From a virus (Duplodnaviria; Heunggongvirae; Uroviricota; Caudoviricetes), in the IMG/VR virus record IMGVR_UViG_643692022_000007: DNA of 38,874 nt. One strand, written 5' to 3'. The position numbers and the translations under genes were made by a program. The notes under the pieces were generated by a model. That model was not told the DNA's origin and made no database searches. It saw only the letters and a program-made list of their open reading frames with translations. Shown here piece after piece: positions 26,378 to 38,874 of the stretch; within the stretch, counting starts at the first letter, position 1, and each line of letters opens with the position of its first letter.

Positions 26378-27754
26378 TCATACGTCAGCCCCTTGTGCAT
26401 ATCGTCTGCCACGTGCACCGGGTGCATTTGATGTTGTGCAAATCTGTCTGGCTTCATCCTGGTCACATGCAACAAAGTGTCCGTTGCAGAACTGCTGGTA
26501 AACCGTACCAAGCGAGCCAAAACGGTTTTTCGTCACGATGATTTCAGCAAATGGCGCGGCGCTACTGTTCTCGTCATATACAGCTTCCCGATAGAGCATG
26601 ATGATTGAGTCTGCGTCCTGTTCAATGCTTCCTGAATCACGCAAATCTGCGTTTGTCGGGCGTTTGTTTGGTCGCTTCTCAACATCGCGCGAAAGCTGAC
26701 TTAGGGAGATAACAGGCGTTTTCAGGTCTTTCGCCATCGCCTTCAGGCTTCCGGAGATGTGAGCAATTGCGAGGTCGTTGCGATCTGCTTTCGGCTTCTC
26801 AATCAGGCCAAGATAATCCGCCATGATGAGTGACAGGTTTGGATTTTCCTGTTTATGCCGTTCTGCGATTGAGCGTATTTCTTCGACCGATAACCGCGAG
26901 GCATCGACTACCCATACATCCAAATCCGCAAGCTGACTCATGCCGTTAGCAACACGTGCCCAGCCCTCGTCATCCATCGATGCAGGATTTCGCAGTACGC
27001 TAACCGACATCCTCCCGGCGTTGGCAATGCTTCGTTCTGCAATCTGCAATGCGCTCATTTCCATCGAGAAAATCAACACTCCTCGCCGGACGTCAGAACC
27101 AGGAATAACGCGGCTTGCAACGCCTTCGGCAATCTTCAGCGCCAGCTCGGTTTTACCCATACCAGGACGAGCAGCGATTATCACCAGGTCTTCCGCGTTC
27201 ATCCCTCCGGTGATGGCATCAAGTTCTTCGATTCCGGTCTTCAGGGTATCGGACTCTTCTCCGTTCCTCAGACGCCTGTCAAGCGTGTCAGTGTAGTCAG
27301 TGATGATTTCACCCAACCGTACAGGTTTAACCTCGTCACGGGGCTTTCTGATGGCTGAGAGACGCTTTACAAGTTCATCCATCGCCTGACTCGATGCGTC
27401 GATGGTTCCGCTCTGAATTGGTTCACGCATTTCATCCATGATTTCCAGCACCAGACGGCGGTGATAGTTATCCGCGACCATTCCGGCATATCCCTTCAGG
27501 TTTGCGGCACTCGGGCAGTTTTTGCTGGTCATCAGGATTGACGTGAAATGCTCCTCTCCGCACGCCTCGGCAACCATCAGCGCGTCGATTAGGTTTCTGT
27601 TTCGCGCCTGCTTGCGGATAACCTCGAAGGCTTTCCGGTAGAGCGGAATTGAAAACGCTTCCGGCTCAAGCGTTGCCAGAACGTCACTGGCAGTTGGTGT
27701 TAATCCACCAATCAGCAGGCCACCGATAACGCTCGCTTCGATATCCTGTTTCAT
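26378..27754 (-). CDS. Replicative DNA helicase, DnaB family (P22 gene 12-like)
   Basis: 458 aa with a Walker A motif ([12 protein letters not shown]) and DnaB-like architecture; directly downstream of the O-like gene. Confidence 0.9.
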
Positions 27755-28698
27755 GCAATCCCCCTGTCTGCAAACTTCCCTTCACGAACTCCCGTTAACG
27801 AATCTTCTCTCAGCAGGTAATCAAAATCGGCCGTCCAGCCAGTGTCGTTGTCTCCGAAGTAAAACGGCTTGGCCTGATGTACAAACGCCCTGACATACGC
27901 TCTGAAACCGTCCACGTTTGGCGTTTTCAGTTGCGGGATGATTTTCTTCAGGCGGCGTTTGCGTTTCTCGTTGACCGCAACAGCGTGTGGCAGTCTGTCA
28001 CCGACTTCGGTGTTGTAGGCGTTCAGGAAGGATTCGTAGTCGATTCGTTCTGCCTTGCGACGTTCAGGTTTAACCTTCCCATCACCTCCCCCATTGGGGG
28101 GTAGGGGGGTATTATTTATATTCTTGTTAATACCTTCTTGTTCATGATGTGCGGTTGTTTGTGCGGCTTCATGTGCGCTTTCATGTGCGGCATGTACTCT
28201 GAAAGCCGCGCCATTGCTGGCTTCGTCATGTGCGTCATCATGTGCGGTTGTTTGTGCGGCTTCATGTGCGGGTGAATTGTTCATTTTTTGAGCGTATTCA
28301 TGGTAATTTGTGACGGTGATCACACGACCTTTTTGCTTCTCTCCATCAATGGAGATCATCCCCTCTTTCACAAAAACCTGAAGCATCCGCTCAACCTGAT
28401 CACGGCTTGCCGGCTTGCCATGCCTGTCGCATAACTGAAGACCTAAATCAGCTGCTGTCACAACCAGTTGACCGGGTTGCAGATGCCATTCATGACCTTT
28501 GAAATTCGCTTTGTATGGCTTTCTGGCGGCATTCAGGAGAAGGTTTTCCCACAGGGTGCGAAGATAAACATCTTTCGCCCATGACTGTTTCAGAATGCTC
28601 CGGTACAACGGAATGTAACCAGTTTTCTGGTTCTCCATCCTGTTGCTCCTGCGCTCGTGTGCGGCGCTGAAATCGTAGATTTTTGCTGTATTGCTCAT
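27751..28698 (-). CDS. Replication initiation protein (lambda O / P22 gene 18 analogue) containing the origin iterons
   Basis: 315 aa; N-terminus [10 protein letters not shown] resembles lambda O (MTNTAKILNF); internal repeated peptide [10 protein letters not shown] arises from DNA iterons within the gene. Confidence 0.8.
28140..28280. repeat. ori: Candidate replication origin: array of direct repeats (iterons) with adjacent G-run/AT-rich segment
   Basis: Roughly 36-bp unit catgatgtgcggttgtttgtgcggcttcatgtgcg present twice (about 28141 and 28239); six or more copies of tcatgtgcg-like core; followed at about 28083-28140 by gggggg runs and AT-rich sequence. Confidence 0.65.
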
Positions 28699-30896: not shown

Positions 30897-31356
30897 TTTC
30901 TTCCGTCCAATGGAGTATGATAATAACTATGAGCAATTTGGTGTTATAGAAGCACACAGGAATGGTCGTTCTACTCCGTCATATCAGCCAGGCACCATTG
31001 GTAAGGATATCCCGGTTATTATTGCGCATAAGTTAAGCGATCAACCAGCAGGGGGTGAGCCACAGATGAGCGTAAAATCACTGTCACGTTGGGAGTTTTG
31101 GCTAGGGATTTTCACTGCCATTATTGGGATATTTTCCATTGTTGTAGGAGCAACGTGGACAATTTCTAATAATATCAATGATAAGATTAATGCATCAAGA
31201 CAAGAGCTAACCGGGAACATCCAATCCAGTCGAGCAGAAATCACGGCAAGAATTGACAGGCTCGAAGATAAGATGGAGTCTAATTTCAAAGAAACATCAT
31301 CGAATCTGTTCAAAATACAGGCAATTCTAGAAGCAAAATCCGACAAAGAAAAATAA
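30871..31356 (+). CDS. Hypothetical single-pass membrane protein with C-terminal coiled coil (immunity-region moron, gene B)
   Basis: 161 aa; MKM N-terminus; one TM helix (WEFWLGIFTAIIGIFSIVVGATW); heptad-like C-terminus; overlaps gene A by 26 nt; followed by a terminator. Confidence 0.6.
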   Translation: MKMTNQKTDFFRPMEYDNNYEQFGVIEAHRNGRSTPSYQPGTIGKDIPVIIAHKLSDQPAGGEPQMSVKSLSRWEFWLGIFTAIIGIFSIVVGATWTISNNINDKINASRQELTGNIQSSRAEITARIDRLEDKMESNFKETSSNLFKIQAILEAKSDKEK

Positions 31357-31363
31357 GAAAGTC

Positions 31364-31388
31364 CGGCCTCAGCGCCGGGTTTTCTTTG
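31364..31388 (+). terminator. Rho-independent terminator after the moron pair
   Basis: Hairpin CCGGC-ctcagc-GCCGG followed by GTTTTCTTTG, right after the gene B stop. Confidence 0.6.
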
Positions 31389-31539
31389 CCTTACGATCCC
31401 CACACCTAATAACACCTTAACCAATTGTATTTATTGAAAAATTGATAGATACAACTTGCTAAACCACGCAATTCTGATCCCTGCAGCATAACCTTCATCC
31501 GCAACATTTACAAAAATAAATTTCCTTATATATCAAAAT

Positions 31540-31660
31540 CATATTTCGTATAGTTAATAAATCACAAACAATTCGTACCAATAGTTCTTGATAATATCGA
31601 ACTATTGGTTCATTATTATCGCCATCAGCAGGACGCTGGTAGCCAAACGGAACAGATTGG
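31540..31660 (+). promoter_or_regulatory. Candidate OL / pL region upstream of nutL and N
   Basis: AT-rich gap containing an 11-bp perfect inverted repeat ACCAATAGTTC(n11)GAACTATTGGT and CGTAC motifs shared with OR; GATAAT and TATAGT -10-like hexamers. Exact promoter not resolved. Confidence 0.4.
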
Positions 31661-31663
31661 CAG

Positions 31664-31697
31664 GCTCTTTAACTTCGATGGGGCGCTGACAAAGCGC
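31664..31697 (+). promoter_or_regulatory. nutL: nutL (boxA plus boxB)
   Basis: boxA-like GCTCTTTAAC followed 10 nt later by boxB hairpin GCGCTGACAAAGCGC (P22-type), about 120 nt upstream of N. Confidence 0.75.
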
Positions 31698-31816
31698 AAA
31701 CAGATACCAAACGAGATGGGTTTGGCGGTGATGTGAATTGCAGCTGCAACGACAGCAACCAGAAGATCAGCATCTGGCGCATCACCACCAAAGCCATTTC
31801 ACATGAGGAAAATATC

Positions 31817-32158
31817 ATGACGGTAATCGTGTACGGGAAATCAACATTCGCAGGAAATGCCAAAACTCGCCGTCATGAGCGGCGCAGAAAGCTGGCTATC
31901 GAGCGTGATGCCATCTGCAACATCATCGATTCGATCTTCAGTACAGACAGTGAGGAACCTGTTCAGGAAGCCCCGAGAAAGCGTTTAAGCCTTTCTGAAA
32001 AAGCAATATCACTCGGAAGCCTTCGCTGCAAGAAGTCAGAAGAAGTCGAGCGTAAACAGAATCGTATTTACTACCGCAAGCCACGCAGTGAAATGGGTGT
32101 GACTTGTTCAGGTCGCCAGAAGCAACGCGGAAAATCAATTCCAGCTTATTACGATTGA
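31817..32158 (+). CDS. N: Antitermination protein N
   Basis: From MTVIVYGKSTFAGNAKTRRHERRRKLAIERD... (arginine-rich motif) to a C-terminus ...VTCSGRQKQRGKSIPAYYD resembling lambda N (ITCSGRQKIKGKSIPLI); GAGGAA before the ATG. Confidence 0.85.
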   Translation: MTVIVYGKSTFAGNAKTRRHERRRKLAIERDAICNIIDSIFSTDSEEPVQEAPRKRLSLSEKAISLGSLRCKKSEEVERKQNRIYYRKPRSEMGVTCSGRQKQRGKSIPAYYD

Positions 32159-32166
32159 GGTGAGAT

Positions 32167-32304
32167 ATGCTCAAGAAAGTCAAACGCCGACTTTACAAAG
32201 AAGGTAGATATTCATGCCAGTTGCCAAAATGCGACACAACAAAATGGAGTGTCGATGATTGGTGTAACTGGATAGATAGATACGGAACTTGGTGGGATAA
32301 ATAA
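32167..32304 (+). CDS. Hypothetical small Cys/Trp-rich protein (45 aa)
   Basis: Hand-translated MLKKVKRRLYKEGRYSCQLPKCDTTKWSVDDWCNWIDRYGTWWDK; strong SD GAGGTGAGAT immediately before the ATG, right after the N stop. Confidence 0.35.
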   Translation: MLKKVKRRLYKEGRYSCQLPKCDTTKWSVDDWCNWIDRYGTWWDK

Positions 32305-32428
32305 CAGGTAACTTAAGCGTATTTACTTTCGCAGCAAACAACTTATTTGAGGTGAGATATGGAAGAAGAATTTGAAGAGTTCGAAGAGCATCCTCAGGAT
32401 GTGATGGAACAATACCAGGACTATCCGT

Positions 32429-32629
32429 ATGACTACGACTATTGATAAAAATCAATGGTGTGGACAATTCAAGCGATGCAATGGATGCAAGCTGCAATCG
32501 GAATGCATGGTTAAGCCTGAAGAAATGTTTCCTGTAATGGAAGATGGGAAATATGTCGATAAATGGGCAATACGAACGACGGCAATGATTGCCAGAGAAC
32601 TTGGTAAACAGAATAACAAGGCTGCCTGA
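32429..32629 (+). CDS. Hypothetical small Cys-containing protein (start uncertain)
   Basis: 66-aa track ORF MTTTIDKNQWCGQFKRCNGCKLQSEC...; overlaps an upstream 28-aa acidic ORF that has the better SD. Confidence 0.3.
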   Translation: MTTTIDKNQWCGQFKRCNGCKLQSECMVKPEEMFPVMEDGKYVDKWAIRTTAMIARELGKQNNKAA

Positions 32630-32669
32630 TGGTGGCCTTTATTTTTGGCATAAACAACAGAATAAATAC

Positions 32670-32709
32670 TGCTCCGTGTATTCATTCCAACGAGTGAATA
32701 CACGGAGCA
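32670..32709. repeat. 15-bp perfect inverted repeat (strong hairpin)
   Basis: TGCTCCGTGTATTCA-(10 nt)-TGAATACACGGAGCA, between the small-ORF cluster and the coiled-coil gene. Confidence 0.85.
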
Positions 32710-32798
32710 ATGTCGCTCGTAACTAAACAGGAGCCGACTTGTTCTGATTATTGGAAATCTTCTTTGCCCTCCAGTGTGGGGGCTTTTTTGATGGAGGA

Positions 32799-33770
32799 TA
32801 TATGAGTGAAGTAACAGATTTAGTTGTTATTGAAAAAGCAAATGCAATGATTGTATTTCAGTCTGCTGACCAGATTGAAGAAATTCTCCAAAAGGTTGAA
32901 CGTGAAGTTATGTCCTTTGTGCCTGATATCACAACGGCAAAGGGCAGAAAGGAGATCGCTTCTCTGGCGTATAAAGTTGCGCAGACGAAAACATATCTCG
33001 ATGGTCTTGGCAAAGACCTTGTTGCTGAACTGAAGGAAATTCCAAAGCTAATTGATGCCAACCGCAAGACAGTGCGCGATCGCCTTGATGAACTGAAAGC
33101 CAAGGCACGCCAGCCTCTTACTGATTATGAGGAAGAACAGGCGCGAATTAAAGCCGAAGAAGAAGCTAAGGCAGCAGCTGAAGCTCTCGCAAAGCAAATT
33201 GAGTCTGACCATGAAATAGCGATTTTGATGGATCGCGAATTTGACCGCCAAAGAGAAGAGGCAAGACTCAAAGCGGAGCAGGAAAAGCGAGAGCATGAAG
33301 AACGCTTAAAAAGAGAAGCTGAAGAGAAAGCCAGAGCAGAAGCCGAAGCAAAGGCAAAAGCCGAAATTGAAGCAGCAGCAAGACGAGAAGCAGAGGCTAA
33401 GGCCGCAGCGGAACGTGCAGAGCGTGAACGCATTGAAGCCGAGCAACGAGCACAGCGCGAAGCAAAAGAGGCAGCAGAACGAGCTGAAAGAGAAAAGCAT
33501 GCGGCAATTGAAGCAGAACGCCGAAAAGCACAGGAGGAGGCTGAACGAATCCGGCTCGAGGCTGAAGCAAAAGAGCAAGCCAGAATAGCAGAAGAAAAAA
33601 GAATCAAGGACGAAGAAGAGCGTAGAGCAAAGGATAAAGCTCACCGGAAAGAAGTAAATAACAAAATACTTGCTGACCTTATCAAGGTTGGCGCATCAGA
33701 AGATGTTGCTAAAAATATCATAACAGCCATCGTAAAAGGCGAAGTATTCGCAACAAAAATAACCTACTAA
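32799..33770 (+). CDS. Hypothetical highly charged coiled-coil protein with Ala/Glu/Lys/Arg repeats
   Basis: From MSEVTDLVVIEKANAMIVFQ..., about 323 aa; central ~200 aa low-complexity (AEAEAKAKAEIEAAARREAEAKAAAERAERERIEAE...); globular ends. Confidence 0.6.
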   Translation, partial: YMSEVTDLVVIEKANAMIVFQSADQIEEILQKVEREVMSFVPDITTAKGRKEIASLAYKVAQTKTYLDGLGKDLVAELKEIPKLIDANRKTVRDRLDELKAKARQPLTDYEEEQARIKAEEEAKAAAEALAKQIESDHEIAILMDREFDRQREEARLKAEQEKREHEERLKREAEEKARAEAEAKAKAEIEAAARREAEAKAAAERAERERIEAEQRAQREAKEAAERAEREKHAAIEAERRKAQEEAERIRLEAEAKEQARIAEEKRIKDEEERRAKDKAHRKEVNNKILADLIKVGASEDVAKNIITAIVKGEVFATKITY

Positions 33771-33793
33771 TAAACCAACATAAGGAACCACCC

Positions 33794-33925
33794 ATGATTT
33801 ACGCAATCGCGGGAGGCGCTCGCATGGGTGCCTTCCAACTAAATGAATCTTTACTTGAACGAATCACCCGTAAATTACGTGACGGATGGAAAAGAGTTGA
33901 GGTCTTATTATGCGCAATGAAATAG
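33794..33925 (+). CDS. cIII: CIII-like protein (FtsH inhibitor)
   Basis: Hand-translated 43 aa MIYAIAGGARMGAFQLNESLLERITRKLRDGWKRVEVLLCAMK; core matches lambda CIII (MQYAIAGW...ESLLERITRKLRDGWKRL); AAGGAA SD. Confidence 0.75.
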   Translation: MIYAIAGGARMGAFQLNESLLERITRKLRDGWKRVEVLLCAMK

Positions 33926-34062
33926 CCATCAATCACCAGATACTTCGTGCAGCACAGAACAAAGCAGTAATAGCCAGATTTATTGGTGATTCCAAAATGT
34001 GGCTTGAAGCAAATAAAGCGATGAAATCAGCTATCAACCTTCCGTGGTATCGCAGGAAATGA
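33910..34062 (+). CDS. kil: Kil-like protein
   Basis: Hand-translated 50 aa MRNEIAINHQILRAAQNKAVIARFIGDSKMWLEANKAMKSAINLPWYRRK; resembles lambda Kil (..IATFIGDEKMFREA..); overlaps the cIII stop. Confidence 0.55.
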   Translation: MRNEIAINHQILRAAQNKAVIARFIGDSKMWLEANKAMKSAINLPWYRRK

Positions 34063-34229
34063 GTTTTACAGATAACTGGTCAGACGAAGAATTCATTCGT
34101 CAGATGAAAGAATTAATCGGTAACGAAGGAGATATTCATGTCACTTGCAACCACAGTGAAGGAGAGCAAGTTACAGAGACGCATGTACACGCAGCAGGCG
34201 TTAATGTATCGCCAGAAGGGAGATCGTGA
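34059..34229 (+). CDS. Hypothetical small protein (P22 arf position)
   Basis: About 56 aa from MSFTDNWSDEEFIRQMKELIGNEGD...; ATGA overlap with kil; upstream of erf. Confidence 0.35.
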   Translation: MSFTDNWSDEEFIRQMKELIGNEGDIHVTCNHSEGEQVTETHVHAAGVNVSPEGRS

Positions 34230-34318
34230 AGGTGTTCGCGTATTTTTAAATGCGGCAAAGACTGAAGTATTAAATCAGCGTTATTTCCTTGGGCCATGTC
34301 CATTCTGAGAACAATCAT

Positions 34319-34924
34319 ATGAGCAAAGAATTTTACGCAAGACTGGCAGCTATTCAGGAGAATCTGAACGCGCCAAAGAATCAGTACAACTCATTCGGCA
34401 AATATAAATACAGAAGCTGCGAAGACATTCTTGAAGGCGTTAAGCCGTTACTGAATGGCCTGTTTTTATCAATCAGCGATGAAGTTGTGTTGATTGGTGA
34501 TCGGTATTACGTGAAAGCCACGGCAACTATTACCGATGGCGAAAACAGTCATACGGCAACCGCTCTTGCACGAGAGGAAGAAAGCAAGAAAGGAATGGAT
34601 TCTGCACAAGTTACGGGAGCTACAAGCTCTTATGCACGCAAGTATTGCCTCAATGGTTTGTTCGGCATTGATGATGCGAAAGATGCAGATACAGACGAGC
34701 ATAAACATCAGCAGAACGCAGCAGCAAAGCAATCAAAACCATCACCTACACCTGAACAGGTTCTAAAAGCATTCACTGACGCAGCATTGCAGAAAAACAC
34801 CGTAGAAGAGCTTAAACAGGCGTTCGCCAAAGCGTGGAAGATGCTCGAAGGCACACCGGAGCAGCACAAAGCGCAGGACGTTTACAACATCAGACGAGGC
34901 GAATTAGAAGGAGCGGCTGCTTAA
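34319..34924 (+). CDS. erf: Erf single-strand annealing recombination protein
   Basis: From MSKEFYARLAAIQENLNAPKNQYNSFGKYKYRSCEDILEGVKPLLNGLFLSISDEVVLIGDRYYVKATATITDGENSH..., a close match to remembered P22 Erf. Confidence 0.9.
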   Translation: MSKEFYARLAAIQENLNAPKNQYNSFGKYKYRSCEDILEGVKPLLNGLFLSISDEVVLIGDRYYVKATATITDGENSHTATALAREEESKKGMDSAQVTGATSSYARKYCLNGLFGIDDAKDADTDEHKHQQNAAAKQSKPSPTPEQVLKAFTDAALQKNTVEELKQAFAKAWKMLEGTPEQHKAQDVYNIRRGELEGAAA

Positions 34925-35307
34925 TGGCACATTCGATTACTGTAAGACTAAACAAGCCCGCAAGAGAGTTTCAGACCGGGGAAAATATCGGATTCAACAT
35001 CCGTGCTGGCGTTCAGTATTACGATCGCCAGACAAAAAAGAAAGAATGGACAAACTACAGCGCCGTTGTATTTGCCAAGCCGGGAGCGCAAGCGGATTAC
35101 TACCGTAGTGTTCTTGTTGAAGGTGGCATTGTTGAAATTACCGGAGAAAACATCAGGGTTGATGTTTATCAGGGGCAAAATGGTCAATCAATCAATCTTG
35201 AATTACTGAATGCAAAGATTGGATTTGCAACTTCAGGAAACAGCCAACAGCAGCAAAGTAGCAATCATCAAAATCATCCTGAATACGACGATTCAATTCC
35301 CTTCTAG
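34924..35307 (+). CDS. SSB-like protein with C-terminal DDSIPF tail
   Basis: 127 aa from MAHSITVRLNKPAREFQTGENIGFNIRAGVQYYDRQ...; Gln-rich linker then ...PEYDDSIPF, resembling the bacterial SSB tail DDDIPF; TAATG overlap with erf. Confidence 0.5.
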   Translation: MAHSITVRLNKPAREFQTGENIGFNIRAGVQYYDRQTKKKEWTNYSAVVFAKPGAQADYYRSVLVEGGIVEITGENIRVDVYQGQNGQSINLELLNAKIGFATSGNSQQQQSSNHQNHPEYDDSIPF

Positions 35308-35330
35308 ATTTGCAAAACAAGGATTCCATT

Positions 35331-35627
35331 ATGCCAGCGCCTCTGTATGGTGCGGATGACCCGCGCCGCTGTTCCGGCAATTCCGTATCGGAGGTGCTGG
35401 ATAAATTCAGGAAAAACTACGACCGGATAATGTCGCTACCGCAGGAAACGAAAGAGGAAAAGGAATTTCGCCATTGTATATGGCTTGCAGAGAAAGAAGA
35501 ACGCGAGCGGATTTACCAGACATCAATCCGACCATTCCGCAAAGCCACATATACCCACTTCCCTGAATATATCGACCCGCGCCTGCGTAATTACCGCTCA
35601 CGCTATGGCGCTATCAGTAATGACTGA
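35331..35627 (+). CDS. Hypothetical protein, possibly Abc2-like anti-RecBCD factor
   Basis: About 98 aa from MPAPLYGADDPRRCSGNSVSEVLDKFRKNYDRIMSLPQETKEEKEFRHCIWLAEKEERERIYQ...; position after erf matches P22 abc genes. Identity rests on weak recall. Confidence 0.35.
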   Translation: MPAPLYGADDPRRCSGNSVSEVLDKFRKNYDRIMSLPQETKEEKEFRHCIWLAEKEERERIYQTSIRPFRKATYTHFPEYIDPRLRNYRSRYGAISND

Positions 35628-35638
35628 GGAATTAACAA

Positions 35639-35928
35639 TGAAAACAATGAAGCTAAACATCGACCTCGGAAAATACGTTATTACCGGAACCAAACACGAC
35701 CTGATTCTTAGCGAAAGAGGAATTATCAAAGAAGGCGAGAATGCAGGGAAAGAAACGCTCAGTCGTATCGGTTATTACAGCAAGTTTGAGCATCTGGTTA
35801 AAGAGTTATGCAACCGTGAAATCCTGTTATCTCAGGCGCAGACGCTACAGGATATTCAGCAGCATATCGAGACTTTAGGTGTGTCACTTAGCATGGCTAT
35901 TGACCAGTTCGTGGAGAGTAAATCATGA
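35639..35928 (+). CDS. Hypothetical protein
   Basis: About 96 aa from [28 protein letters not shown]...; GAGGAA SD. Confidence 0.4.
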
Positions 35929-36092
35929 GAGGACTTGCATACAATCCCGGCATTCTTCCGGCAGAAATGATTATTCGCCAACGCGTAAAGCCAATGCCAT
36001 CGAGAGAGGAATTGCTTAAGAGAAATTCTTTTCCATCAGTGAATCAAAACAAATATCTGAATGCGATGTGGCGCAAAGGAGGCAACCAGTGA
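35925..36092 (+). CDS. Hypothetical small protein (55 aa)
   Basis: Hand-translated [55 protein letters not shown]; ATGA overlap with the upstream stop. Confidence 0.3.
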
Positions 36093-36358
36093 GTGAGTCA
36101 AAATGCCAAATTAATGGCAATAAGATAGAACCGTGCGCGGTGTTGGCAAAATCTCTCGAATATGGAAATCCAACATTCAAGAGTAAAGGCATATTTATCC
36201 CGGAGCGTGTGAACATAAACACCGGCGAGTCAGGCATAGATATTGCTCAAATTCACTCGGGGAAATATATCGGTCGTGGCGTTGCAATGTGCTTTTGCCC
36301 GTTCTGTGGTGAAAGTTTGAAAACGTGGGAAGCGGAGGCAGCCAGTGAGCAAAATTGA
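36089..36358 (+). CDS. Hypothetical protein with C-terminal CxCxxC motif (GTG start)
   Basis: AGGAGG then GTG; product [22 protein letters not shown]...[28 protein letters not shown]; GTGA overlap with the upstream stop. Confidence 0.4.
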
Positions 36359-36899
36359 CCATCAGGCACTGCGTGAGGTGGCGGAACGTGCAATTCCAGC
36401 AATGGAACGCCTGTTAATGTTGCCAGCTGATGATGATTTGTTAAGTGAACAGGAACTTAAAGATTACGGTGTGGATATTGATGCGCTCAATGCCTTCAAA
36501 TTTCTGACCGGACCAGAAACCGTGCTGGCGCTGCTGGATGAACTGGAAAGGAACCAGCAATACATCAAATCCCGCGACCAGGAGAACGAGGATATTGCGC
36601 TAACGGTAGGGAAACTGCGTGTTGAGCTGGAAGCAACAGAGAACAACCTCATTGATAGTGAATGCCATGTTGCTGAACTAGAAGAAGCACTACGCGACAA
36701 GCAGGCGTTACTTGAAGCCTCAGAAAAGCGCATAGCAGAACTGGAAGCACGGGAGGTTGTACTGCCGCGTGCGCACGATGTTCACCCATTAGGGCCGCAG
36801 TCGGCGAAAATTTTTTGTGAGTTTCACCGGAGTATCGTGAACAGATGCTCCGATGAGATTCGCAAGGTTGGCGTCAAAGTCAGCATCAAGGGGAATTAG
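36345..36899 (+). CDS. Ead/Ea22-like coiled-coil protein
   Basis: 184 aa; [33 protein letters not shown]... with a central coiled-coil heptad region; assigned by general resemblance to lambdoid early-region Ead/Ea22-type proteins. Confidence 0.45.
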   Translation: MSKIDHQALREVAERAIPAMERLLMLPADDDLLSEQELKDYGVDIDALNAFKFLTGPETVLALLDELERNQQYIKSRDQENEDIALTVGKLRVELEATENNLIDSECHVAELEEALRDKQALLEASEKRIAELEAREVVLPRAHDVHPLGPQSAKIFCEFHRSIVNRCSDEIRKVGVKVSIKGN

Positions 36900-36903
36900 G
36901 GAT

Positions 36904-37560
36904 ATGGCTGAACTAACCAAAGAATGGCTGAAGCAAACTATCGCTGAATACGAAGCCAATCGTGATGAATTACCGTTTGGACTGGATACCAACAGTGCCA
37001 TTGAGCTTCAGGCGTTCAAGTTGGCGCTGGCATCGCTGGAAGCAGAACCAGTTGCTTATATTTTCAAACATCCGGCTGGAAAATTATTCTGGGCTTTAAC
37101 GGATGAAAGCAATAAAGATCAATCGGACGTTATTCCTGTTTATGCCGCCCCTCCAGTGCCAGTAGTACCTGCTGCATTACCTGAGAACGACGATGAGGAC
37201 GGGCATGACATTGATTATCTTGAGCCATCTGAAGTTTACTCGCTTGGGCGAACAGCTGGCTGGAACGCCTGCCGTGCTGCCATGCTTCATGGTGCCGAAC
37301 CTGTAAGCCAAACTTACAAGTTGAACGAGCTATCTGGCAACTCTCCGGTAACTCCTGATGGTTGGATAAGCTGTAGTAAGCGAATGCCGGAGAAATACGA
37401 TTTCGATATCTGGGTATTCTCTCTATCCAGAGGTGTTCTTGACGGGCTACAGTGGGATGGCTCGATGTTTACTGATGATGAATATCAGTTCGTTATTCAT
37501 GACGCCACGCATTGGATGAGAAAAGCATATCCAGCAGCACCACAGCAGGAGGTCGAATGA
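36904..37560 (+). CDS. Hypothetical protein
   Basis: About 218 aa from MAELTKEWLKQTIAEYEANRDELPFGLD...; Trp/Asp-rich C-terminal domain (KYDFDIWVF...WDGSMFTDDEYQF). Confidence 0.45.
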   Translation: MAELTKEWLKQTIAEYEANRDELPFGLDTNSAIELQAFKLALASLEAEPVAYIFKHPAGKLFWALTDESNKDQSDVIPVYAAPPVPVVPAALPENDDEDGHDIDYLEPSEVYSLGRTAGWNACRAAMLHGAEPVSQTYKLNELSGNSPVTPDGWISCSKRMPEKYDFDIWVFSLSRGVLDGLQWDGSMFTDDEYQFVIHDATHWMRKAYPAAPQQEVE

Positions 37561-37832
37561 GCAGGGTGAACGGGAGCAAGCCGCCTAAGTACATGCCGGT
37601 AATGAACTCCGCCAAGCCAGTAAAGCTAACCTATGAGCAAGTAATGGCGCTTCCGTTGATGTCGGATGTTTATGTAAGGATGAATGACGGTAAAATTTTG
37701 AATGGTAAGCTCGCTTCGCACTCAGATTATCTCGTCGGATGTCCGGTAGTCGACATAGGTGAATCGAGGAGCATTGGAATTGGATACGAGGGGGAAATTA
37801 TCGCAGCAGCACCGAAGCAGGAGGTGAAGTGA
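37557..37832 (+). CDS. Hypothetical protein
   Basis: About 91 aa from MSRVNGSKPPKYMPVMNSAKPVKLTYEQVMALPLMSDVYVRMNDGK...; ATGA overlap with the upstream stop. Confidence 0.4.
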   Translation: MSRVNGSKPPKYMPVMNSAKPVKLTYEQVMALPLMSDVYVRMNDGKILNGKLASHSDYLVGCPVVDIGESRSIGIGYEGEIIAAAPKQEVK

Positions 37833-38116
37833 TGTACTCCTTCGCGAAATATACGGTTATTGACTGGATAGCATTCCTTCAGGTTTTGCTCATCTGGTTT
37901 TATATGGCTTACAGGAGTGGACAGTGGATTGTCAGTGTAGCCTGTAGCAAGGGATGGCGTTGGTGGAACCGAAAGAATAAAAAAGCACTGGCATTGGATT
38001 CGTTTTACGAAGCATTCAATCTTAACAGCCTTCAGCCTGGTTCTGTCATTGTAGTCACCACTAAAAGCGGCATGACGATACAAATTCACAAGCCAAAGGA
38101 GGAAGGTCGTGGCTAA
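37829..38116 (+). CDS. Hypothetical small membrane protein
   Basis: 95 aa with one hydrophobic helix (IDWIAFLQVLLIWFYMAY); overlaps the upstream stop. Confidence 0.4.
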   Translation: MMYSFAKYTVIDWIAFLQVLLIWFYMAYRSGQWIVSVACSKGWRWWNRKNKKALALDSFYEAFNLNSLQPGSVIVVTTKSGMTIQIHKPKEEGRG

Positions 38117-38390
38117 CCTGCAACTTGCCGTTAAAGGTGAATACTTCGATGCCATGATTCGTGGAGAGAAAACGGAAGAGTATCGCCTGTGTAATGACTA
38201 CTGGAATAAGCGAATTATGTTCCGGGAGTATGACCGCCTGATTATCACAAAGGGATATCCGAAGCGCGACGACTTCAGTCGCAGAATTGACGTCCCGTAT
38301 GAAGGGTATGAAATCAAGACAATCACACACCCCCACTTCGGCGATAAACCGGTAAAGGTGTTCGCGGTAAAGGTGAATATTGATGGCTAA
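38109..38390 (+). CDS. Hypothetical protein, possibly ASCH/PUA-like small beta-barrel
   Basis: 93 aa MANLQLAVKGEYFDAMIRGEKTEEYRLCNDYW...; pattern resembles ASCH-type domains seen in phage early regions. Confidence 0.35.
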   Translation: MANLQLAVKGEYFDAMIRGEKTEEYRLCNDYWNKRIMFREYDRLIITKGYPKRDDFSRRIDVPYEGYEIKTITHPHFGDKPVKVFAVKVNIDG

Positions 38391-38484
38391 ATCAGCAGCA
38401 GAACGCAACTAACAAACCTCGCACCGTCGAGGTTTTCTTTTATCTTAACTCGCTACGGCGAGTTTTGTTTTATGGAGATGATAA

Positions 38485-38652
38485 ATGCACTTCCGAGTCA
38501 CAGGTGAATGGAATGGAGAGCCATTCGACAGGGTTATCGAAGCAGAGAACATCAACGACTGCTATGACCACTGGATGATATGGGCGCAGATAGCACATGC
38601 AGACGTAACCAATATTCGAATTGAAGAACTGAAAGAACACCAAGCCGCCTGA
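38485..38652 (+). CDS. Hypothetical small protein (55 aa)
   Basis: Hand-translated MHFRVTGEWNGEPFDRVIEAENINDCYDHWMIWAQIAHADVTNIRIEELKEHQAA; GGAGATGA SD; stop lies inside the following terminator stem. Confidence 0.3.
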   Translation: MHFRVTGEWNGEPFDRVIEAENINDCYDHWMIWAQIAHADVTNIRIEELKEHQAA

Positions 38653-38667
38653 TGGCGGTTTCTTTTT
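38644..38667 (+). terminator. Rho-independent terminator upstream of the excisionase-like gene
   Basis: Hairpin CCGCC-tgat-GGCGG followed by TTTCTTTTTG. Confidence 0.7.
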
Positions 38668-38682
38668 GCCTGGAGAATTAAG

Positions 38683-38874
38683 ATGACCGATACCAGCCTG
38701 ATTCCTGAGAAAGAAGTGATGAACAAGCTCGGTGTTTCATCACGTCAGACAATCTGGAACTATACCAAACGGCACGGATTTCCGAAGCCAGTCAGAACCC
38801 ACCCCAAATCATACCTTCGTGAAGCTGTTGAAGGGTGGATTCTTAACGGTGGCGTTAATCAGAAATGCTCCTGA
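38683..38874 (+). CDS. Excisionase-like small DNA-binding protein (Xis/AlpA-type)
   Basis: 63 aa; MTDTSLIPEKEVMNKLGVSSRQTIWNYTKRHGFPKPV... is typical of small winged-helix excisionases; last gene of the early-left operon, where xis precedes int. Confidence 0.5.
   Translation: MTDTSLIPEKEVMNKLGVSSRQTIWNYTKRHGFPKPVRTHPKSYLREAVEGWILNGGVNQKCS

Follow-up and report, generated by a model that had tools for sequence, protein, structure and literature searches.

The Rec modules of 325 lambdoid phages have been classified in a survey that recognized, with 27 phages, an 'HK75' functional type combining an anti-RecBCD protein, an SSB and an annealase with no nuclease (PMC12315714; Genome Res 2025). In the same survey, HK97 gp40 was named "SSB-1b" on its predicted fold only, and the annealase C-terminal domain as a shuffled partner-docking module was explicitly left unanalysed (PMC12315714). 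The action of P22 Abc2 on RecC of the RecBCD complex, with the resulting change in the Chi response, is established (PMC5928155, PMC9836394), and Pro68 of Abc2 is the residue seated in the host protein PpiB (PMC9836394). In HK620, the gene before abc2 was demonstrated to code for an SSB, and both the loading and the stimulation of the adjacent Sak4 annealase depend on the last six residues of this phage SSB, NDYPPF (PMC5928155; Hutinet et al. 2018), a stimulation that takes place without Abc2 (PMC5928155); this SSB is of the 'SSB-2' class, a sequence type apart from SSB-1b (PMC12315714). In phage lambda, the C-terminal domain of Red-beta binds the last ~9 residues of the host SSB (PMC11611040); lambda Exo is a further partner of this domain. 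A search of the literature found no paper with biochemistry on an SSB-1b protein.

Here we describe a locus related to these systems in a window of 38,874 nucleotides, by which we mean the whole stretch analysed (IMG/VR record IMGVR_UViG_643692022_000007; Caudoviricetes).

Layout and affinities of the erf-ssb-abc2 locus

Positions 34319-35627 of the window carry three co-oriented ORFs on the + strand, and these are the three genes that a preliminary description had placed there. The first, erf (34319..34924, stop codon included; ATG 34319, TAA 34924), codes for an Erf-family single-strand annealing protein of 201 aa; the second, ssb (34924..35307; ATG 34924, TAG 35307), for a 127-aa protein of the SSB-1b type homologous to HK97 gp40; and the third, abc2 (35331..35627; ATG 35331, TGA 35627), for the 98-aa anti-RecBCD protein 2. 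The ATG of ssb and the TAA of erf share bases in a TAATG overlap, a translational coupling that would help the co-expression of Erf and the SSB, and no convincing internal promoter or terminator was found dividing erf-ssb-abc2. The surrounding early-left (pL) operon belongs to a mosaic E. coli phage or prophage that is P22-like (Lederbergvirus-type). On its 5' side the module is preceded by an N-like gene, a long coiled-coil ORF and the genes cIII and kil, and on its 3' side it is followed by ea-type genes and an excisionase-like ORF. The location of ssb, between erf and abc2 and 3' of cIII and kil, is that of a lambdoid Rec-module gene.

The closest described counterpart is the HK97 module erf-gp40-abc2, which has the same gene set and order and whose DNA is 95.3% identical to the window over 33908-35641. 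The SSB is 93% identical to HK97 gp40 over 127 aa (E 8e-80). The two loci differ in that the window has an extra P2-orf83-like gene after abc2 (35638-35928), which HK97 lacks, and an SSB with an intact tip, whereas in the HK97 reference gp40 a 1-nt insertion turns ...DDSIPF into ...DDSNPILI, with loss of the IPF tip. The module belongs to the HK97/HK75 type and is of an already described kind. Directly 5' of erf, a 56-aa ORF (34138..34308, + strand; phrog_1723, E 4.5e-34), which we treat as context only, holds the position of P22 arf and is also found in HK97 within the 95%-identical block 33908-35641; its candidacy as an Arf homologue was rejected, as it is without similarity to P22 Arf.

The P22 module, erf-abc1-abc2, likewise follows cIII and kil, and its Erf core and Abc2 are ~92% and 93% identical to those of the window; however, the slot held in P22 by the HTH-like abc1 is occupied in the window by the non-homologous ssb. 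In Sf6 the order is Rad52-type annealase, SSB-1, endonuclease, abc2, P2-orf83-like gene and DUF2737 gene. The downstream part of this module (abc2, the orf83-like gene and the DUF2737 gene) matches the window, and its annealase carries a C-terminal domain of the family seen in Erf and is followed by a gene for an SSB with an IPF tip; unlike in the window, the annealase core is of the Rad52/22 type, the SSB is canonical and E. coli-like (157 aa), and an endonuclease gene is present. The Sf6 endonuclease is annotated as having 14 contiguous residues of the E. coli SSB.

The third gene, earlier described as possibly Abc2-like, is a true abc2. Its product matches PF11043 over the full length of the profile (E 4e-62; 206.8 bits, cutoff 25), phrog_656 (E 8e-57) and the RecBCD-bound chain of PDB 8b1t (E 1e-56). 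The N-terminal helices used for RecC binding are kept, and a direct reading of the sequence shows that Pro68 is kept as well. Its 93% identity to P22 Abc2 suggests that it, too, targets RecC and changes how RecBCD responds to Chi.

Relatives of the SSB were recovered from 376 phage records and 337 IMG/VR stretches. Of 5426 complete E. coli genomes, 556, or about a tenth, contain 80% or more of the 1.3-kb module, and in all E. coli matches listed the RefSeq label of the middle gene is "hypothetical protein".

The 127-residue protein as a probable divergent SSB

Sequence searches with the 127-aa protein recovered no Pfam family at E<=1, PF00436 being missed, no NCBIfam family at E<=0.01, TIGR00621 being missed, no PADLOC match and, among PDB sequences, non-significant matches only (4dam, E 0.45); against phrog_44, the PHROG family of phage SSBs, the E-value was 8e-28. 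Structure prediction, the check for an OB fold that had been suggested for this protein, returned an AF2 model in which an OB domain precedes a disordered tail (residues 107-127). We accordingly divide the protein into a predicted OB-fold domain (aa 1-104; 34924..35235, + strand), a Q/S/N-rich disordered linker (aa 105-119; 35236..35280, + strand; pLDDT <50 from residue 107) and an acidic-hydrophobic tip, EYDDSIPF (aa 120-127; 35281..35304, + strand), that resembles the host SSB-Ct. The solved structures nearest to the model are bacterial SSB and PriB, pointing to an OB fold of the SSB/PriB type.

A family profile of 43 sequences was aligned by hhalign to the E. coli SSB with a probability of 88.5% and an E-value of 2.7e-6. 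This alignment pairs Y32, W42, F50 and Y82 of the window protein with W40, W54, F60 and W88, the ssDNA-stacking residues of the E. coli SSB, so that aromatics stand at all four positions; His55 of the E. coli protein pairs with Thr43. No member of the family departs from W42 or F50, and Y32 is close to invariant. The E. coli SSB, a homotetrameric OB-fold protein with the acidic tip DFDDDIPF, shares with the window SSB the OB fold, the four stacking aromatics, a disordered linker and a ...DD(S/D)IPF tip, but differs in its length of 178 aa as against 127 aa, with a window linker of 15 residues, and is at most 18% identical to it in structure-based alignments. Homologues of the window protein reach Vibrio phages at about 50% identity, and throughout the family the architecture of OB domain, linker and acidic tip is kept, even as the linker varies in length and sequence.

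The tail, which ends in ...NHPEYDDSIPF, had been likened to that of bacterial SSBs, and its conservation bears this out. The DDSIPF tail is not due to chance, as all but one of 57 distinct close homologues collected from loci (56 of 57) end in IPF; among 120 database homologues, 69 end in IPF and 17 more in PPF, APF or IPY. More distant members terminate in NEPPMDFDDDIPF (Edwardsiella phage GF-2) or NEPPADWDEDIPF (Vibrio phage K74), the former being the tail of the E. coli SSB itself. Pairwise dN/dS values of 0.08-0.21 (median 0.17) show that ssb is under purifying selection. The constraint is stronger on the tip than on the linker, and in the last eight codons 101.5 synonymous differences stand against 34.5 non-synonymous ones when the 89 non-independent pairs with the window gene are summed.

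As five lines of evidence agree, among them the phrog_44 match, the profile alignment, the architecture and the purifying selection, the middle protein is very probably a highly divergent bacterial-type SSB with a host-like docking tail. The comparison with P22 Abc1 gave no BLASTP alignment at E<=100, and P22 Abc1 itself has HTH / sigma-70 region 4 matches; the candidacy of the middle protein as a plain Abc1 orthologue is rejected on both the absence of an alignment and the OB fold predicted here as opposed to the HTH-like Abc1.

Since the viable phage HF4s has a frameshifted ssb copy of 94 aa, the database also holds truncated copies (P0086 and P0115) and HK97 has lost the tip, ssb is dispensable for plaque formation, and is helpful rather than essential. 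Such dispensability is expected where the host SSB can substitute.

The C-terminal domain of Erf and the unit exchanged relative to P22

Erf matches PF04404 over aa 5-143 (E 2e-44; 151.5 bits against a cutoff of 25) and phrog_155 (E 2e-57), and its nearest relative is HK97 Erf at 99% identity. The preliminary description had it closely matching P22 Erf. This holds for the N-terminal annealase core (about aa 1-120; 34319..34678, + strand), which is ~92% identical over the first 120 residues, but not for the protein as a whole: overall identity is 75%, becomes much lower past residue ~152 and amounts to no more than 39% over the last ~55 residues, whose P22 counterpart is a domain of another subtype. 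In the AF2 model of Erf (pLDDT 82.6), the C-terminal domain (aa 145-201; 34751..34921, + strand) is predicted as a three-helix bundle (helices 145-158, 162-175 and 181-199) behind a disordered linker (aa 126-141, pLDDT <50).

A blastn comparison of the window with P22 found similarity over 34319-34779 (79.5%) and 35328-35641 and none between. Hence, the unit exchanged relative to P22 is a cassette of Erf codons ~155-201 together with the whole SSB gene (34780..35327, + strand), replacing the P22 Erf C-terminus and abc1, and not the SSB gene alone. The reciprocal arrangement is seen in four Salmonella-type loci (L077, L079, L081 and L082), where a P22-type Erf core and a P22-type abc2 stand around an HK97-type C-terminal domain and SSB-1b.

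Sequence comparison indicates that the ~55-aa C-terminal domain is portable, since its homologues also end annealases of other types. A Sak4-like AAA_24 protein from Serratia has a C-terminus homologous to that of Erf (BLASTP E 3e-14, 44% identity), as do Rad52/22-type annealases (E 8e-8) in most abc1-bearing Salmonella loci, Sf6 and Yersinia prophages; the protein of a further locus (L215), with a core of no assigned family, ends in an Erf-type C-terminal domain as well (alignment A6). The gene after each observed annealase with this domain codes for SSB-1b, a canonical SSB or Abc1. These cross-family fusions came from the inspection of loci, not from domain searches: a word-indexed search with a 62-aa query of the domain recovered Erf fragments only, and an exhaustive phmmer search gave 17 matches with no further architectures, the query being short for a library of 1.8 billion proteins.

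The type of the C-terminal domain predicted the downstream gene with 0 discordant cases among 134 distinct pairs, in a table biased by the fetching of loci with abc1 or SSB-1b as bait. The strict rule that the domain subtype predicts the partner was dropped, as in Sf6 the domain is of the P22 type but the next gene codes for a canonical SSB. Given this bias and the contradiction from Sf6, a generic role for the domain, such as docking on the SSB tip, is favoured over a partner-specific one. The tail WSDEPPF is found downstream of two different domain subtypes, so that tight co-variation of the SSB tail with the C-terminal domain is not apparent, n being very small.

We tentatively raise the possibility that this three-helix domain is a portable adaptor, attached to no fewer than three kinds of unrelated annealase core (Erf, Rad52/22-type and Sak4-like AAA_24), that docks the annealase on the ...DDxIPF tip of an SSB, be it the phage SSB-1b or SSB-1 or that of the host, and that in lambdoid mosaics is exchanged with the downstream gene and not with the annealase core. 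In Red-beta, as in the window Erf, a flexible linker sets off a small helical domain at the C-terminus, but no sequence or significant structural likeness between the two domains was found, and Foldseek with the whole Erf model as query gave no PDB match at E<=1e-3. If the adaptor proposal is correct, the domain would be to Erf proteins what the C-terminal domain is to Red-beta, and would offer an easy means of redirecting annealases to new hosts. We regard the adaptor as a lead and not a finding.

A proposed mode of action and its competitors

The HK620 locus sak4-ssb(hkaK)-abc2 shares with the window both slot and logic, namely an annealase gene followed by one for a phage SSB whose tip is like SSB-Ct and then by abc2, and differs in that its annealase is the RecA-like Sak4 and not Erf. 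By analogy, the HK620 Sak4/SSB pair offers the best model for the working of the window module, and the earlier suggestion of a self-contained annealase with its own SSB fits both this pair (PMC5928155) and the SSB-1b class (PMC12315714). We consider it likely that the three genes constitute an early-left homologous-recombination module of the HK97/HK75 type in a P22-like temperate E. coli phage, providing an annealase, an SSB and an anti-RecBCD protein with no nuclease of its own, and that they act in successive steps from Abc2 through the SSB to Erf. Going by its similarity to the P22 protein, Abc2 on RecC would stop the normal Chi response and make the host RecBCD a resection motor that yields phage ssDNA. 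The fold model, profile alignment and architecture suggest that the OB domain of the SSB would coat this ssDNA, and that its Q-rich flexible linker would display the acidic ...DDSIPF tip in imitation of the peptide with which the host SSB docks its partners. Erf may then be brought to the SSB-coated ssDNA, as in the analogous cases of HK620 Sak4/SSB and Red-beta, and anneal it to complementary ssDNA, its recruitment most likely proceeding through the SSB tip and the three-helix C-terminal domain of Erf. Through its host-like tip, the phage SSB would in addition be able to contact host SSB-binding proteins.

This last property underlies the main rival to the module proposed above, in which the SSB is a mimic or competitor of the host SSB. 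Its tip would recruit host SSB clients, such as PriA, the chi subunit, RecQ, RecJ, RecO and ExoI, to phage ssDNA or lure them off the host SSB, with Erf not being the key partner. That the tip follows the host SSB tail, as in the GF-2 and K74 homologues, and is under stronger constraint than the linker is consistent with such a role, and the SSB residues in the Sf6 endonuclease suggest that tail-borrowing could be a general habit of phages. Nevertheless, we regard it as unlikely to be the principal function, for ssb recurs in tight linkage with annealase genes from three different families and is translationally coupled to erf, and the HK620 tail acts on the annealase itself (PMC5928155). The two roles, of mimic and of partner to Erf, are not mutually exclusive.

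Gene neighbourhoods bear on the further alternative of an SSB that serves primarily in replication, on the lagging strand of the phage, and that would have come to lie in the recombination module through mosaic history only. In Edwardsiella phage GF-2 and Vibrio phage K74 the gene directly before the SSB-1b homologue is Erf-like, and in Yersinia and Serratia prophages the homologues come after Rad52-type and Sak4-type annealase genes; the phage neighbours of ssb are always recombination genes, those for Erf, Rad52-type, Sak4-type and YqaJ proteins among them. The family members in Rheinheimera and Alteromonadaceae, on the other hand, have a chromosomal, non-phage-looking setting beside an MFS transporter gene, as a housekeeping ssb might, and this, together with the bacterial SSB-like architecture, would agree with a replicative function. 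However, the replication genes of the window (ORFs at 26378-28698) lie away from the module on the opposite strand, the phage copies always adjoin recombination genes, and viable phages tolerate the loss of ssb, all of which render such a function quite improbable for the window protein. In some Rheinheimera and Alteromonadaceae, the housekeeping SSB may itself be a protein of the SSB-1b type; as with the adaptor domain, we present these chromosomal genes of Rheinheimera as a lead rather than a finding.

Equally, the position between the annealase gene and abc2 is the same as that of P22 abc1, and HK620 hkaK was first annotated as abc1 on this very ground (PMC5928155), which might be taken to mean that the middle protein is a functional analogue of Abc1, that is, an accessory of Abc2 modulating RecBCD. 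We assign very little probability to this, as the two proteins are without sequence similarity and the predicted OB fold differs from the HTH / sigma-70 region 4 of Abc1, SSB-1b is also found in loci without detectable Abc2 (Vibrio K74, Serratia and Yersinia), and the HK620 SSB stimulates Sak4 in the absence of Abc2 (PMC5928155). Finally, the frameshifted tail of HK97 and the broken copies in HF4s, P0086 and P0115 might evoke a decaying or non-functional ORF merely carried between erf and abc2, a reading that is hardly credible and already contradicted by the conservation data, namely the dN/dS values, the intact frame, the near-invariant IPF ending of the close homologues, the full module in a tenth of the complete E. 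coli genomes and the retention of homologues out to Vibrio phages.

The computational evidence supports the interpretation of the locus given in the preliminary description, and the module is one that has already been sequenced, in HK97, and classified. The published picture of lambdoid Rec modules is unchanged, bar the lead on the annealase C-terminal domain as a shuffled docking module; what we add beyond the literature is the definition of the unit swapped relative to P22 and the occurrence of this domain on Rad52-type and Sak4-type annealases. The module is a compact (about 1.3 kb) natural cassette of annealase, SSB and anti-RecBCD protein that could be tried in recombineering. The middle gene, still a "hypothetical protein" to RefSeq across hundreds of genomes of E. 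coli, very probably codes for a phage SSB whose docking tail is like that of the host.

Damaged copies of the SSB-1b gene and of erf

Of 57 distinct close homologues, just one lacks the IPF tip of SSB-1b, the divergent 127-aa probable SSB encoded downstream of erf: gp40 of the HK97 reference (locus L003, 3787-4176). This gene has one additional C, reading GATTCCAAT as against GATTCAAT in the window (35281-35307), which shifts its final codons such that the protein ends in ...DDSNPILI rather than ...DDSIPF. Either a sequencing error or a mutation of laboratory or strain origin accounts for the additional C, and the gp40 sequence that carries it is the type sequence behind the 'SSB-1b' classification. 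In phage HF4s (L001, 3726-4121), a frameshift divides the SSB gene in two, leaving a 94-aa 'ssb protein' plus a 36-aa ORF. Given that HF4s was isolated as a viable phage with its SSB gene thus split, the gene appears to be dispensable for lytic growth. The database homologues P0086 and P0115 are likewise frameshifted or truncated.

Two prophages have damaged copies of erf: in one (L075, 3001-4672), a 224-aa ORF, which looks like an IS transposase, breaks the gene after codon ~148, and in the other (L232, 2247-2501) the Erf core is deleted. The fragment coding for the C-terminal domain, the SSB-1b gene and abc2 are all intact in both.

Annotation of the module and its operonic surroundings

In RefSeq E. 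coli genomes (e.g. NZ_CP054940.1, 2650433-2651741), the NCBI pipeline labels the SSB-1b gene 'hypothetical protein', while naming its neighbors 'ERF family protein' and 'phage anti-RecBCD protein'. NCBIfam and Pfam contain no model for either the SSB-1b family or the annealase C-terminal domain.

Downstream of abc2 in the window, and upstream of a DUF2737 gene (35925-36092), lies a plus-strand gene (35638-35928) coding for a 96-aa DUF5405 protein (E 1.9e-5; phrog_154, 'replication initiation protein'). Sf6 and HK446 possess a gene of this type at the same position, the Sf6 counterpart being annotated as P2 Orf83-like, whereas HK97 and P22 lack one there. Directly upstream of cIII and kil is a 339-aa ORF (32751-33770, plus strand) composed mostly of Glu/Ala/Lys/Arg repeats of a coiled-coil, TolA-like character; its HF4s homologue is annotated as resembling the phi80 Agt ('Gam antitoxin'). 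A simple scan of positions 31000-38874 recovered 22 terminator-like hairpins, where shuffled sequence gives an expectation of 7.8 +/- 2.8. Within the early-left operon, several of the 22 fall where genes end (32618, 32766, 38414 and 38642). Sites of this kind are what one would expect of an operon with N-mediated antitermination read-through.

SSBs and SSB-like proteins in other phages and in bacteria

In an IMG/VR contig (3300011952_000008; L083, 3001-3998), the C-terminal domain of Erf has diverged (62% identity), and the slot after erf that SSB-1b fills in the window holds a small canonical SSB of 128 aa (PF00436, E 3e-20), the tip of which, YDESIPF, is closer to that of SSB-1b than to the host DFDDDIPF. 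An endonuclease gene lies 3' of the SSB gene in Sf6 (L321, 1308-1787), and its product, per the record annotation, has 14 contiguous residues in common with E. coli SSB; it would be one more phage protein with borrowed SSB sequence.

SSB-1b homologues of 210-215 aa were also found in Rheinheimera and Alteromonadaceae genomes (L308-L314 and L319; e.g. L312, 3001-3642). These show ~52% identity to SSB-1b across the OB domain, carry a long, repetitive Pro/Gln-rich linker (for L312, with AYNQAPAQP repeats) and end in DFDDDIPF; they have no match to PF00436 and match TIGR00621 only at E 1e-3. No phage genes are visible around the L312 gene, whose neighbors encode an MFS transporter, a GGDEF protein and a CobW-type GTPase. 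In these bacteria, the SSB-1b homologue may serve as the housekeeping ssb.
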